DNA of 64,000 nucleotides from a plasmid, in sequence record NZ_CP067021.1; one strand, 5' to 3'. This document shows, in pieces, positions 1 to 9,000 of the stretch. Each line of letters opens with the position of its first letter. The stretch's first letter is position 1. Position numbers: made by a program.

Positions 1-3000
1 TCCAGCAAAACTAAAACGACCGTACAGCATGCCTAGACTGGATGGTACGGATAACCCTTGGAACCAAGGCAAACGAGAAAACGATGTCTATATATACAAG
101 GGGATTGAGTACAAAGGCATTGAAGCGGAAACAGCAATGCATAAAGTGGTGATTGCATCAGAATTAACGGCAATTGCCGGATTGGATAATCAGTTAGCGA
201 ATCTGGCCAACGAAACAGGTGTAGCGTTGTTTTCAGAATTTATTGAAGTTGCACACCAGAACAATGATTTAAAGGATTTAACATATGTAGTTTTTGATTA
301 TGTAAAACATCTAATTGTGACGATTGATCGCTATTTTGATTTAAAACTGAAATCTAACGTGTCGGTCAGTATTTCAGTGAACCGAGTAGCTGGCTATTCA
401 AGGTATAGCATAGTTCAACGGAAATAGACGCACGAACGCAACCAGTGACATTACATGTGTCGTCAATGACAGCTTATGTGTCTCGAACGTGCACGTAATT
501 TTGGATTGATTGGTTTGAATGCAGAAAATGTAAATTATGCAAAGTAACACCATGAATATAGCTGATGATTGTACGGTAGTACGTAGACCGTATCAAAGAA
601 TGACGACAGCTAACATGCTTAAGATTTGTTATAATAAACAAATTGTTAGTATCTAAACGACACATGAGCTGTCATTTTTTGGAAATTGCGACTACCCTAT
701 TCATTTTAATTCGAACTTTAACTTATGTTCACCTGAAGTCTAGTTAATAAAACTTTTAATAATTTTATTTATTATTTTCAATAACTTATATAAATAAAAA
801 AATAATTATAAATTTTTGGTTCATGAACCTAATGAATTTATTGATACTTTTATAAAATAGAGTTAATTTGTCCGAGAGATATGGGTAGATATCTATTTTT
901 GGTCTTTTTAGTGATTAGAGATATGACCATTGTCATCAAATTTTAAGGAATTCCTTAAGTTTTTTTCTTATAATTCAATAAAATAATTTTGAATACTCAA
1001 AAATTAAATGTAATATAAGTCACATTATGAACCGTTAAGTGAAATACGTTTTGCTTAAACGAATGATTGAGTTAGATCATCTAAATGATGATCGTGCTAG
1101 AAGACTCAGGTTTTACACCAAAATATTTGGCAGACTTTATTTTAAATACAATCCTAAACTGAATATAAAAAACCTTCGGAGGGCTTATTTGGCCAAACTA
1201 ACCATCAACCTGAAAAAACTAAATTCTTACGCTAAGTATTTTTTCTAAAAGACACCGTACATATAGCATTACTTTATGTTAATAAAAATTTAGCATCATT
1301 TTTGACGCTTATTTGTTGTATGTGCAAAAGCAAGACATTTTAAATAAAGAATCTTTTAATATGAAAGTTACATATCCAGAGACAGGTATATACGAGCACG
1401 AACTCAAAGCAATTGATAAGATTAAAAAGGTCTTTGATCGTGGCGAAAAAACTAAAAACTGGCGAGCATATGCTGGTTTTGAATTTATGCATAAAAATGG
1501 AAAAAAAGCAGTAGCGAAAGGTAGTTCTGAGAAATTTGAATATGATCTCCTAATTATTACTCATGCAAACATTTTGGTCATTGAATTCAAGGACTGGAAC
1601 GGTAAGGAAATTACAAAAGTTGCAGGAAAATGGTACGTAGGTAATAAAGAGCAAGATTCATGCCCTGTAGCTAAAAATGTAAAAAAAATGCAAATTATAG
1701 TTAATAAACTAAAGGATAAAGTTTCAGAAAAGAAAGCTAAGGGCATTACATTTCATTACCAAAGTGTTTCTCACTTTGTTGTCATGTGTGGTAAAGCAGA
1801 TTATTCGCGCCTGCCTCCAGAAGATTTAGAGCACATTCTTTCGATAGATGAGTTTATACAATTAGCTCAACAGAAGAATTTTAATAATATGTTCCGCAAG
1901 CATCTGGAACGTGATGGTCGCATATATGATATTAAAAAAGAATATCACGCCATTATTGATGAAATTTTTGCGCCTGACCAAATTCAACCACGCTCTTTGA
2001 TTATTAATAATCATGAACGAGGTGACTTGATCTTACCGCATCCTAAAAAGATTTATAGCGAGTATAAAGCGCATTCATTGACCATCGTTGGTGAAAAATC
2101 TTTAATGCGTTGTTGGGATTTTAATGAATTCAAGTTGAGTAACTCAAGAATGAGTCAGCCTCAACATCGATTCAACTTGATCTGCAATGAGCGCCGGGTT
2201 TTCCAAAAAATTAAAACAGAAAAGCCTGATCTTTATCAAAGTTGTTTGCACCCGATTACAAACCCAAGTCTTGATGACATGACATCAAAATATAATGAGT
2301 TGTATGAGTTGCCTGAGAACAGCTATCGAGTCAACGAATTCATCGGCGCTTATGCTGAGAAAATGTCTGAATCTGAGAAATTGGATTTATTCCAGATTTT
2401 GCTTGGTAAATTTAATCACCTACATCAAATGGGAATTACTCATGGTGATGTGGGTGATCATAGTGTGTGGATCTCTTATAAAAAGGAGATATTGCTATCC
2501 AATTTTTCGGCAGCAAATGATCAAACACAGCCCTCGAAAATTGACCCTGAACTGGCTAACGAACTCCCATTTTTGAATACAACAGCTCATCTTCCGAATC
2601 TTGCGCTGACAGCTGCACAAAAGGATGTGTATTGGTTAGGGCAGTTAATCCTTCATATTTGGAAGAATGCTCGACTGAGCCCACGTTCATTGAAAAAATT
2701 TAGTCTTGAGGAGCGAGATCAGAACCACTGGTTAGAGCGTATTTTAACACGAGCTTTGACAGGGAAATATGATAATGCATGTGCAGTATTCCAAGATTTC
2801 TTAGCTCAAAAACCTGCTGAACAAGTTAGTTATGAACTTGATGCAGATGTACTGAATCCATATTTAAATCAGACAAATACCTATATCAGTTACCCGATAT
2901 TTGGCGCGCCTATTGATGCTAACCAAAATTTTACACTCTATGCATCAGGCAACATGTTAGTCAAAACATGGATGGGTAAAGTTGCATCTGCAATGACAAC

Positions 3001-6000: not shown

Positions 6001-9000
6001 CCCACATGAAATTAATGAAATTATCGATTTTCTTCAGCGGATTGACCAAGACAAACTCTTGTTAAATAAATTAGTGCCAGAGCCTGATTCCCTTAAAGAG
6101 CCTGCTATTGGTGTAATTTGTACCTATGCTGAGCAAAAAAACCGGTTAAGAAAAGCCTTCTCTTTGTGTGAAGTGTCAGATGCATTGAGATCAATTGTGC
6201 GTATTGATACGGTGGATAGTTATCAAGGTAAACAGAATAAGATCATCATTCTCTCAGTTACGCGAAATGATCCAACTAAGTTTCCTGCATTTTTGAAGTC
6301 ACCAAATCGTGTGAACGTGGCTTTATCTCGCGCAATGGATCGTCTTGTAATCTTTGGTGCGTCAGAAATGTGGCAAGGAGTCAACAGTAACTTACCTTTA
6401 GGACGCGTATTAAATTACATCAAGTGCCGTGAGAATCAGACTTTAGAATATCGATATATTTCAAAACGCGCCATTGTCAAAATAGTACAAAACAATCCGC
6501 ACATTAATAAAAATAGATCAAAAAAATATAGAAAGGCAGGGGTATAACTCATGGAAAATTCACTAAGAAGCTATCATGACGTAGATGTTACATTGCCATC
6601 ACAACTATTCAATGTGGCATTTAGCTATACCACAACAGATACCTTAGATTTTATTGATTCTATGGTATTGCGCCTATTGGTAATTGCACCACTTTCTGCT
6701 GAAAAAATAGCGCGGTTCTTAGGGTTATCTAATCATGAAACAGATGTGCTATTAACTAAATTATTAAAACAAATGCAGATAAAACATCTTGAAGATGATC
6801 GATTTGCTCTGACTCAGCGACTTGAGAAAGCATTCTCGGATGTTTGTGCAATTCCTTATGTAAATAAGATTGAGGACAATATTCAAAAGATGAGTTTTGA
6901 GATGATTGGCTTGAATCCTGAGCCAGTTAATCCCAACGCATCTGACAATGGGGCAAATTCAATTAAATTAGATGCTTCTAACCAATACCTTTCAAATGGT
7001 GAGTCTTTGGTTAGTAAGGAGTTTCAGAAAAATTTTCGATTTTATTTCAGCCAAGGATTAGTTAAGTTGAATCCATCAGTGGATGAAAAGAAGCTGCAAC
7101 TGTATAAAATGAGCCAAGTGGAAAAATTGCGAGACCATTCTCGTCGTTTTACATTACCATTGACGCTTGATGAGAATTATACACCTACAGAGATTAGTGA
7201 TTTTAATCACATGGAAAATCTTAACAAAATCGAAGATTCTCTTTACGCTGCTCTTAGATCAGCTAAGAAGCCACAAAATATTGAGGATATTCTAAAGGTA
7301 CTCCATGAATTAGATATGGAGGATACTTTTTCAGTTGAATCTATTTTTAGCGAGAATAAGCTTAATTTAGATCGCTTATTTAAGCTAGAACACAAATCCA
7401 ATGAATACTTTATCGGGCCAATATATTCTAAGGAAAATTCAGACCTGTTTTTCAAAACAATCAAACAATATCAAGACCAGAATAATGATGATAAACAGCT
7501 GTATTGGTTAGCTCCATCAGATGAATTTTGGGGTAAGTCAGATAGATTTAGTGATTTTATTGATCGTTTATCGACAACCACAATTACCAAAAACTTTAAA
7601 TGCTTCTTACCAGTGGCATACAGAAATGATAAACAATCAATCGCAAGTTATAAAAAACTAATCACAGCTGAGGCAGGAGCCAAGCACTTTCTAACGTTTA
7701 AGGAAAGTAGTGTAGTTTTTGACGGTAATTTTGAGCTTTTGGTTATGAAAGACTCTTTTTGTGTTTTGATTATTCACGTTAGTGATTCATCCACAAATAT
7801 TTTAACAACAGTGCCTGTGGGTATTATTGTCAAAAATAAGGCTATTGCCCAATCGTTTTATAAGTTTTTTGAAGACTTAGAGAACGATGGAGAGAACTTC
7901 TTTGGTTTATTAAATTCTAAAAAATAGAATAATCATCTTAAAAAGCTAGCAGATTTGCTAGCTTTTTTAAACTCAAATTAGAGTGGCAACAATCCAGACC
8001 AGACATTTCTACTTTGAAGTGGCTTTGTTGCACAAAGATTTGAAATGCAAAGCGCCCCTAATTGAGCCAAATTTAAGGCGTAACTTGGGTAAGTGGTCGA
8101 CCTAATTCCGTAAATCTGTTAAGGACTGCTACACGTGCATGGATCTCATTCACTTGGCTATCAAAACTCCTTGCACTGAGTTTATCTCCTAATAATTTGA
8201 TGCAATGCATCTTAGTTTCAACCAAACTTCGCCGATGATAGCCTGACCATTTTTTCCATAGTGTCCTGCCTAAACGTTTAATTGTTCGAAGTAATTCATT
8301 TCGCTCTAGCGAGCTACTCTTTGTATCTTTCCATTTTTTCTAGGTGGAATCACCGCATGCGCTTGCCGATCTGCAATGACCTGACGGCATTGCTTGGTGT
8401 CATAAGCCCCATCGGTATAAACAGAGTCAATCCGCTCATCTTGTGGAATCTGATTAAGTAAATCACCAAGCACCTGTGAATCACTGACATTATTGGTTGT
8501 AAGCTGAACTGCTCGTATTTGTAGGGTTTTAGCATCTATACCAATATGAAGTTTACGCCATTGGCGACGATATTCAGGTCCATGTTTCTTGCGTTTCCAT
8601 TCGCCCTCACCTAGAAACTTCATGCCTGTAGAGTCCATGAGTAGATGCAGCCCATCGCTACTTTTTTGGTAGCTGATTACAATATCAATATGCTTTTGTC
8701 TTCTACAAAGCGTGGTGTAATCTGGAGCTATCCAATTTAATCCGCAAAGTTTAATCAGACTTTGCACAAAGCCAGTGACCATACGTAAAGACAGACGGAA
8801 TAAGGATTTAATCATTAAGCAGCATTGGATGGCTGCGTCGGAGTAGATTTGATTTCGCCCTTGTTTGCCTTTTGATGGAGCATATCATTGCGTAGCAGGA
8901 TCAAACCAAATGGCAATATTTCCTCGACTCATGAGTGCTCGGTTATATGCGGGCCAATTGGTTGTGCGGTAGATTTTGTGTGTAGGCTTCTTCATTTGAA

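Follow-up and report, generated by a model that had tools for sequence, protein, structure and literature searches.

An Acinetobacter plasmid operon assigned to the long, NERD-containing subtype of Mokosh type I

Mokosh type I and the two-gene locus

Mokosh type I, described in 2022, is represented in E. coli by a long and a short subtype. In the long subtype (SEC470 system SG199), a 1652-aa MkoA carries a NERD domain, a first and a second kinase-like domain and a Upf1-like helicase, in that order, and the tightly coupled downstream gene encodes a 478-aa MkoB with a winged helix-turn-helix (wHTH) and no Pfam match to the PLD family. This operon lowers phage plating and is marked as verified in Table S2 of Millman et al. 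(2022), who annotate its MkoB merely as "HTH". In the short subtype (ETEC H10407 system SG202; PADLOC PDLC03920 and PDLC03922), a 1215-aa MkoA without NERD joins a single N-terminal kinase to a Upf1-like helicase, and the wHTH-containing 602-aa MkoB has a true PLDc_2/HKD site (GSHAKIIVCD...GSCNW). The helicase ATPase is needed for defence in Mokosh systems (Millman et al. 2022), and in one biochemical survey Mokosh type I was not purifiable. Outside Mokosh, a NERD-type restriction endonuclease domain, a pseudokinase and an S/T/Y kinase follow one another in the same order in PglW of type 2 BREX, in a subset of DndF proteins and in MAD6 of MADS.

The locus considered here lies in a 64,000-nucleotide stretch of a plasmid (sequence record NZ_CP067021.1; the window). 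Its gene order, tight coupling and MkoA domain order are those of SG199 (Table 1). When the gene pair was checked against the PADLOC catalogue, both proteins were matched over their full length: MkoA to PDLC03921 (E=0, 1675 bits; residues 1-1705 on profile positions 1-1603 of 1607) and MkoB to PDLC03923 (1e-94). Identity to the verified E. coli proteins is 33% over the full length for MkoA and 28% (E=6e-51) for MkoB, which resembles its SG199 counterpart in having a wHTH and no Pfam PLD match. As in SG202, the first gene encodes a protein with kinase and Upf1-like helicase parts and the second a partner that contains a wHTH, and the helicase region is homologous to the short-subtype model PDLC03920 (7e-118), but the NERD domain and second kinase-like domain of MkoA and the lack of an HKD site in MkoB set the two apart.

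Table 1. Features of the mkoA-mkoB operon and its surroundings, in window positions
Feature	Position	Strand	Evidence
mkoA, long-subtype Mokosh type I helicase protein by assignment, 1728 aa	1361..6547	+	PADLOC MkoA PDLC03921; homologue N-termini
NERD (PD-(D/E)xK) nuclease domain, aa 29-124, D62 + E75 + K77	1445..1732	+	Pfam NERD 35.7 bits
Kinase-like domain 1, aa ~215-500, loop HGDVGDHSVW, predicted pseudokinase	2003..2860	+	NCBIfam MAD6/PglW; hhalign
Kinase-like domain 2, aa ~505-725, HGNLDDEK replaces HGDLKPxN	2873..3535	+	Pfam Pkinase 43.5 bits
Middle region without assigned domain, aa 726-1090	3536..4630	+	Within PADLOC MkoA profile match
Upf1/IGHMBP2-like SF1B helicase, aa 1098-1668	4652..6364	+	Pfam AAA_11, AAA_12; TIGR00376
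mkoB, 458-aa partner of MkoA	6551..7927	+	PADLOC MkoB PDLC03923; 3-nt gap, translationally coupled
MkoB winged helix-turn-helix, aa ~34-87	6650..6811	+	
MkoB C-terminal PLD-fold domain, aa 268-458, without HxK(x)4D	7352..7924	+	
Terminator-like hairpin, 12-bp stem, 3' arm a U run	7940..7967	+	RNA fold
Type II CBASS: CD-NTase, ThiF/Cap2, JAB/Cap3, SAVED effector	9614-14408	-	Domain matches; RefSeq names agree
IS fragments downstream of operon	8306-8815 and 14845-16005		

A first-pass annotation had taken the locus for an undescribed defence system, a nuclease-helicase with an added tandem kinase/pseudokinase module. The RefSeq labels, "AAA domain-containing protein" for mkoA and "hypothetical protein" for mkoB, and the lack of any Pfam or NCBIfam match in the partner would agree with this. 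At the level of sequence comparison, however, that reading is refuted by the PADLOC matches and by the verified E. coli homologue of identical architecture, and it retains almost no probability: NERD was already tabulated for Mokosh type I in a 2023 review, the combination of NERD, pseudokinase and kinase thought to be new has precedents in PglW and DndF, and type I Mokosh is listed for Acinetobacter nosocomialis 28F (Table S8 of Millman et al. 2022). By sequence the locus is thus already of a known kind, Mokosh type I; the suspected defence role and defence-island setting are supported. Very likely, the two genes form an intact Mokosh type I anti-phage operon of the long (NERD-containing) subtype, in which, by the mechanism we infer, MkoA serves as sensor and motor. 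Phage protection by the Acinetobacter copy would be expected from its homology to the SEC470 system, although 33% and 28% identity make for a distant relationship.

The sizes and coordinates first given for the two ORFs stand. The larger, 1313..6547 on the plus strand, encodes 1744 aa from TTG 1313 and 1728 aa from ATG 1361, with a further upstream start, the one chosen by RefSeq, at GTG 1322. On comparison with homologues ATG 1361 appears the best-supported start, because all of them begin at the equivalent Met and because the 1728-aa protein, in which all the motifs first quoted are found, exactly matches a cluster with 334 member sequences. The mkoA/mkoB junction reads TAA-CTC-ATG and is preceded by AGGCAGGGG. 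Together with this short gap, the proposed coupled two-gene operon is supported by related loci gathered with the MkoA alignment: of the long-type loci that could be assessed, which come from several phyla, 39 of 39 have a MkoB-family ORF directly 3' of mkoA, usually at a spacing of -4 to +5 nt. The terminator proposed after mkoB is upheld by RNA folding (-15 kcal/mol, z = -3.86); the consensus terminator scan did not call this hairpin because its T run is part of the stem.

Domains of MkoA

The nuclease and helicase calls made at first reading are sustained by HMM searches. The NERD match exceeds the Pfam cut-off of 22.1 bits, and every one of the 45 long-type MkoA proteins in the alignment keeps the D..(E/D)xK pattern of this domain. 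The helicase is matched by AAA_11 (131.7 bits, 5e-38), AAA_12 (124.8 bits, 4e-36) and TIGR00376 (8e-41). Its motifs include GPPGTGKT (1120-1127), DEAA (1387-1390), VGDQDQLPP (1410-1418), TVDSYQGKQNKII (1617-1629) and NRVNVALSRAMDRLVIFG (1649-1666); Walker A, DEAA and motifs III-VI are intact and the motif residues are invariant over the alignment. The operon thus has the Upf1-like (COG1112) SF1 helicase with intact ATP-binding motifs and the adjacent, co-oriented mkoB that are typical of Mokosh type I. A Pfam search of residues 726-1090, between kinase-like domain 2 and the helicase, returned nothing significant.

Two other assignments were considered and rejected. For a single-protein nuclease-helicase of the Nhi or Nhi-like kind, no Nhi model is among the PADLOC matches at E<=1, a negative that assumes that such models exist in PADLOC-DB 2.0.0, and here a partner gene is obligate. 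The second is PglW of type 2 BREX. The NCBIfam models for the MAD6 kinase (residues 52-439, E=2e-26) and PglW (residues 11-393) span NERD and kinase-like domain 1, and the N-terminal module agrees, but the C-terminal half of PglW consists of triple wHTHs and an inactive STAND domain where MkoA has an SF1B helicase. Next to the locus are IS fragments and CBASS; partner genes of Dnd or MADS are not found nearby, nor are those of BREX, which would be PglX, PglZ, BrxC, BrxD and BrxHI.

Both kinase-like domains reported at first are present, but the roles then given to them, with the first keeping its catalytic loop and the second a pseudokinase, have to be corrected. The two are related to one another (hhalign probability 97.5%, E=8.6e-12). 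Kinase-like domain 1 has an HGD motif (ITHGDVGDHSVWI, residues 359-371), while the 45-sequence long-type alignment reveals no member with the DFG Asp or the catalytic-loop Asn, and the beta3 Lys is variable across the family. Judged from these residues, domain 1 is a family-wide pseudokinase.

The Ser/Thr kinase fold of domain 2 is evident from the Pkinase match (residues 549-648; cut-off 31.7 bits). Its catalytic loop reads HGD in 36/36 non-Acinetobacter relatives, and HGN or HGH in 9/9 proteins of the Acinetobacter clade. In the protein studied here the motifs are HGN (631-633) and FND (650-652), with K535 and D652 retained; an early placement of the DFG Asp at S649, which would have meant its loss, was dropped when the 45-sequence alignment put D652 at that position. 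Going by the alignment, domain 2 is a canonical kinase in all non-Acinetobacter relatives, including SG199, which keeps HGD...N and a DFG-like Asp, and the catalytic Asp is lost only in the Acinetobacter clade, where the domain is probably without catalytic competence. It is thus the second, "active" kinase of the PglW-type module that has degenerated, and within this clade it evolves fastest of the domains.

MkoB

Searches of MkoB against Pfam and NCBIfam gave no match, and its profile found only weak wHTH matches among PDB sequences. Word-indexed searches, with the sequence and then with a profile, returned the same 10 Acinetobacter clusters, and exhaustive HMMER yielded 141 representatives; the alignments contain no conserved stretch of 7-10 residues. 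The partner was nevertheless wrongly described as having no recognisable domain, as a winged helix and a C-terminal PLD-fold domain are found, the latter recovered by two methods. The HxK(x)4D active site of PLD nucleases is absent from MkoB here and across the long-type family, so that MkoB departs from the PLD-family nuclease associated with Mokosh type I. When the long-type profile was aligned to the short-type H10407 MkoB with hhalign, only the wHTH region was aligned (probability 1.8%); the C-domains are not alignable by profile, and the PLD relationship is therefore visible by structure only.

Conserved residues of the C-domain are G289, W319, W327, E395, H409, P422 and G424. E395 is invariant in the family and H409 nearly so; either may be catalytic, since the PLD active-site mutant published for Mokosh might belong to any of its systems. 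These two residues also distinguish the family from the non-catalytic PLD-fold proteins TrmB/TrmBL2 and FAM83 DUF1669, to which MkoB has no detectable sequence similarity. Another pairing of a Upf1-like helicase with a PLD protein, the eukaryotic Upf1/MOV10L1 and Zucchini/PLD6 of the piRNA pathway, differs in having neither NERD nor kinase modules, and the PLD-fold domain here is without the HKD catalytic residues.

The missing HKD motif, the replacement of HGD by HGN or HGH throughout the nine proteins of the Acinetobacter clade and the evolutionary rate of kinase-like domain 2, the highest of any domain, could suggest a decaying or inactive Mokosh relic that no longer defends. The absence of HKD is, however, family-wide and common to the verified SEC470 system, and thus not a sign of decay. 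Moreover, neither ORF is disrupted, the two are 99-100% identical across 60 plasmids of many Acinetobacter species, the clade spans 64-100% identity without truncations, and the helicase and NERD motifs are preserved. A relic is, on this evidence, improbable.

Genomic setting and proposed mechanism

Large Acinetobacter plasmids carry the operon in a region of defence and resistance functions, beside resistance genes. The adjoining type II CBASS was correctly recognised at first reading, with matches to DncV-like NTase/SMODS, ThiF, Prok-JAB and SAVED with a weak HNH_2. The locus was also said to be bracketed by IS elements: the downstream fragments are there, but the upstream side is not seen, as the window's edge falls inside a hypothetical gene, and on plasmid pAcsw19-2 the closest IS on that side is ~8-10 kb away.

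Plasmid carriage near IS elements and resistance genes could also point to a plasmid-competition or maintenance module, excluding other plasmids or acting by addiction, rather than to anti-phage defence. Most related loci, however, come from chromosomal or MAG contigs, as does SG199, which is on a chromosomal integrase island. The genes around them vary, with many defence and mobile-element genes among them, such as type I RM and DarTG in E. coli, and Gabija, GmrSD and BrxL (BREX) elsewhere. The homologous E. coli system, moreover, lowers phage plating. As a replacement for anti-phage defence such a module is very unlikely, although one locus could serve both roles.

In the anti-phage operon favoured here, MkoA would sense and act as a motor through its Upf1-like SF1B helicase, presumably on phage-derived RNA, RNA/DNA or DNA replication intermediates. 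MkoB would supply nucleic-acid binding or regulation via its winged helix and pseudo-PLD domain, and cleavage would fall to the conserved NERD D..ExK site and not to a PLD site. With the catalytic Asp of domain 2 lost, the mechanism probably does without phosphorylation in the Acinetobacter clade, where this domain may serve as a nucleotide-binding or scaffold module; the clade could work differently or less well. Only tentatively, and with more doubt than confidence, do we propose that the long subtype as a whole is mechanistically distinct from PLD-type Mokosh, with NERD cleaving, MkoB a TrmB-like wHTH/pseudo-PLD sensor or regulator, and kinase activity dispensable, both Acinetobacter kinases being dead.

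The comparison suggests an effector swap between the Mokosh type I subtypes, with NERD in MkoA of the one and HKD-PLD in MkoB of the other. A further suggestion is that no catalytically competent kinase is left in the version kept by a widespread Acinetobacter plasmid lineage, on which CBASS and multidrug-resistance genes are found as well. RefSeq labels such as those of this gene pair conceal catalogued defence systems.

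Identity and layout of the operon

The operon proposed in the first-pass annotation as a novel defence system is real, intact and was correctly read, and the system is one that is already known and catalogued. Its large protein aligns along the entire length with PADLOC model PDLC03921 for MkoA (E = 0, 1675 bits), as does the 458-aa protein with model PDLC03923 for MkoB (1e-94), and these library matches settle the identity of the locus as Mokosh. Mokosh was described by Millman et al. 2022, in which type I consists of a kinase-helicase gene and a second gene, and mutation of the helicase ATP-binding site abolishes defence. 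Table S2 of that study holds two verified type I systems: SG202 of ETEC H10407, with an MkoA of 1215 aa ("Kinase-Helicase") and an MkoB of 602 aa ("HTH-PLD"), and SG199 of E. coli SEC470, with an MkoA of 1652 aa and an MkoB of 478 aa labelled "HTH" alone. Comparison of the window with the SG199 locus, taken from the complete genome of E. coli TUM1886, gives 33% identity between the two MkoA proteins along their entire length and 28% between the two MkoB proteins (E = 6e-51), and the Pfam architecture is the same, with NERD, Pkinase and AAA_11/12 in MkoA and no Pfam match in MkoB. Based on this shared homology and architecture, the window operon is assigned to the long, NERD-containing subtype of Mokosh type I, a subtype already verified. 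The earlier claim of no described system with such a kinase module is incorrect. NERD is listed for Mokosh type I in a table of a 2023 review.

Among 5426 complete E. coli genomes, 301 contain the 5' end of the SG199 long-type mkoA, most of them with 90-95% identity to it. The strain names behind the two verified systems are confusing, because the RefSeq record named "SEC470" (NZ_CP007594.1) carries a short-type system, and its length is exactly that of ETEC H10407.

The previously described ORFs, 3-nt junction and 3' hairpin are all found in the window sequence, and each quoted motif string was located in the window protein where it had been placed. ATG 1361 is the most likely start of the long ORF, giving 1728 aa: the equivalent Met begins all homologues, and a cluster of 334 member sequences matches this product identically. 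The RefSeq start is GTG 1322. Three nucleotides separate the mkoA stop codon from the mkoB ATG, which has a purine-rich stretch upstream.

Features of the Mokosh operon, its surroundings and the loci compared with it
Feature	Sequence	Coordinates	Strand	Source or value
First ORF (mkoA)	window	1313..6547	+	ORF listing
MkoA aa 726-1090	window	3536-4630
Second ORF (mkoB), 458 aa	window	6551..7927	+	ORF listing
12-bp hairpin 3' of mkoB, 3' arm a U run	window	7940-7967		-15 kcal/mol, z = -3.9
Truncated DDE_Tnp_1 ORF	window	8306-8815	-
108-aa ORF	window	9141-9467	+	25.6 bits (cut-off 27)
CBASS effector	window	9614-11245	-	HNH_2, 4.7e-5
High-GC region	window	16000-32000		GC rises from ~33% to 57-68%
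Stretch with complete ISAba17 (IS66 family)	plasmid pAcsw19-2 (L001)	19277-21758
mkoA ORF ending after 1204 aa	Xanthobacteraceae MAG (L040)	6971-10585
mkoA ORF extended to 1820 aa	Ideonella MAG (L028)	6317-11779

Domains of MkoA

Pfam places NERD at residues 29-124 of MkoA (35.7 bits), Pkinase at 549-648 (43.5 bits) and an AAA_11/AAA_12 pair of the Upf1-like SF1B helicase type at 1098-1668, and the NCBIfam matches are an IGHMBP2-family helicase, MAD6 kinase (52-439) and PglW (11-393). The stretch from the NERD to the Pkinase match is kinase-like as well. The reading as tandem kinase-like is right, since the profiles of residues 215-500 (domain 1) and 505-725 (domain 2) align over the C-lobe (hhalign, probability 97.5%, E = 8.6e-12), and the earlier calls of NERD, tandem kinase-like domains and Upf1-like helicase are upheld by HMM searches and hhalign. 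The ~365 residues between domain 2 and the helicase (aa 726-1090) have no domain assignment, yet the PADLOC MkoA profile extends across them and some of their positions are invariant.

Kinase residues were compared in an alignment of 45 long-type MkoA proteins, throughout which the NERD motif D62..E75-x-K77 is strictly conserved. Domain 1 retains H-x-D-x-G-x-H-S-x-W almost everywhere, its beta3 Lys is variable, and neither the catalytic-loop Asn nor the DFG Asp is present in any of the 45, the latter position holding N, G, H, S or T. Domain 1 is the conserved pseudokinase of the family, like that of PglW. Domain 2 carries HGD[LI](K/H)PxN and the DFG-position Asp in 36/36 non-Acinetobacter sequences, among them the verified protein from E. 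coli. The window MkoA and its eight relatives in Acinetobacter (64-84% identical) have Asn or His in place of the catalytic Asp and DD, DG or SD in place of the KP after it, with K535 and D652 retained. No other domain evolves as fast in this clade as domain 2 (54-80% identity vs 63-90% for the others). The first-pass view of domain 2 as a pseudokinase holds for the Acinetobacter clade, and the working kinase that it implied in domain 1 does not stand. The window MkoA probably lacks any kinase activity.

Distribution and surroundings

The 7-kb locus is 99-100% identical across 60 large Acinetobacter plasmids, which span ten species or more and were sampled from sewage, animals and patients. 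Scanning one genome per species with the MkoA alignment returned 40 long-type loci, in gamma-, beta- and alpha-proteobacteria, in one Candidatus Acidiferrum MAG and on partial contigs of a Pirellula and a Magasanikiibacteriota MAG. An ORF of the MkoB family (141 representatives at 50% identity) lies directly downstream of mkoA on the same strand in 39/39 loci with a continuing contig, mostly at a spacing of -4 to +5 nt. Flanking genes vary between loci and include Gabija GajA, a DUF1156 methyltransferase, GmrSD, C5 methylases and BrxL, as well as integrases, resolvases, IS66 and some housekeeping genes, and the E. coli long-type system sits on an integrase island beside type I RM and DarTG. 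Varied flanks around a constant gene pair fit a two-gene defence system that is self-contained and mobile between defence islands. Failed domain calls, a consistent housekeeping context or absent synteny had been named as evidence against the defence-system reading; instead, the HMM matches hold, the flanks vary and the pair is syntenic in all 39 of these loci. In the Xanthobacteraceae MAG, mkoB is intact and the shortened mkoA is possibly a frameshift or pseudogene; the Ideonella extension is N-terminal.

In the window, an IS fragment and then the type II CBASS noted earlier come after the operon; the claim that IS elements bracket the locus is confirmed for the downstream side only. The Mokosh-CBASS spacer is polymorphic, pAcsw19-2 carrying ISAba17 at the site of the window's truncated ORF. 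Situated between an IS fragment and the SAVED effector of the CBASS, the 108-aa ORF has a sub-threshold match to an adenosine deaminase N-terminus, and could be a deaminase-type gene remnant or a chance match. The effector, with SAVED and a weak HNH_2 match, looks like Cap5 rather than Cap4. Farther downstream lies a high-GC multidrug-resistance region with msr(E) and floR, matching an msr(E), floR, ISNCY and IS66-transposase region common to thousands of plasmids, so that Mokosh and CBASS travel beside resistance genes on these Acinetobacter plasmids.

MkoB and the proposed mechanism

Foldseek is concordant on a PLD fold for the MkoB C-domain (FAM83A 2.5e-6, Nuc 2.1e-5). Structural matches of the C-domain also include BfiI, SauUSI, PLD3/4 and Tdp1, and among the best are TrmB/TrmBL2 and FAM83, proteins in which the PLD fold has a non-catalytic role. 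HxK(x)4D is absent: the window MkoB has no HxK, and a Lys two residues past the conserved His occurs in just 4/66 aligned members. Conserved across these 66 are G289, W319, W327-G-[KR] and P422-x-G424, together with E395 (66/66) and H409 (60/66, Tyr in the rest), and H409 and E395 might alternatively form a variant PLD site. Unlike long-type MkoB, the short-subtype H10407 protein shows PLDc_2 clearly (9.4e-16) and carries GSHAKIIVCD...GSCNW, and in profile comparison the C-domains of the two subtypes were not alignable.

Phage protection by Mokosh systems in general requires the helicase ATP site, and the PLD active site is also required in at least one system (Millman et al. 2022). According to one preprint, T-even phages depend on DNA glucosylation and the Alt ADP-ribosyltransferase to evade an E. 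coli Mokosh type I, which hints that DNA, not RNA alone, is sensed or attacked. Mokosh type I resisted purification in a biochemical survey. The subtypes are complementary: in the long one MkoA has NERD and the PLD fold of MkoB is motif-less, and in the short one NERD is missing and MkoB carries a true HKD-PLD. This complementarity and the strict conservation of the NERD motif suggest that, in the long subtype, cleavage would be performed by the NERD of MkoA, with MkoB as a putative nucleic-acid-binding or regulatory partner. The residual interest of the locus is modest, and lies in this effector-swap hypothesis and in the apparently kinase-dead Acinetobacter clade.
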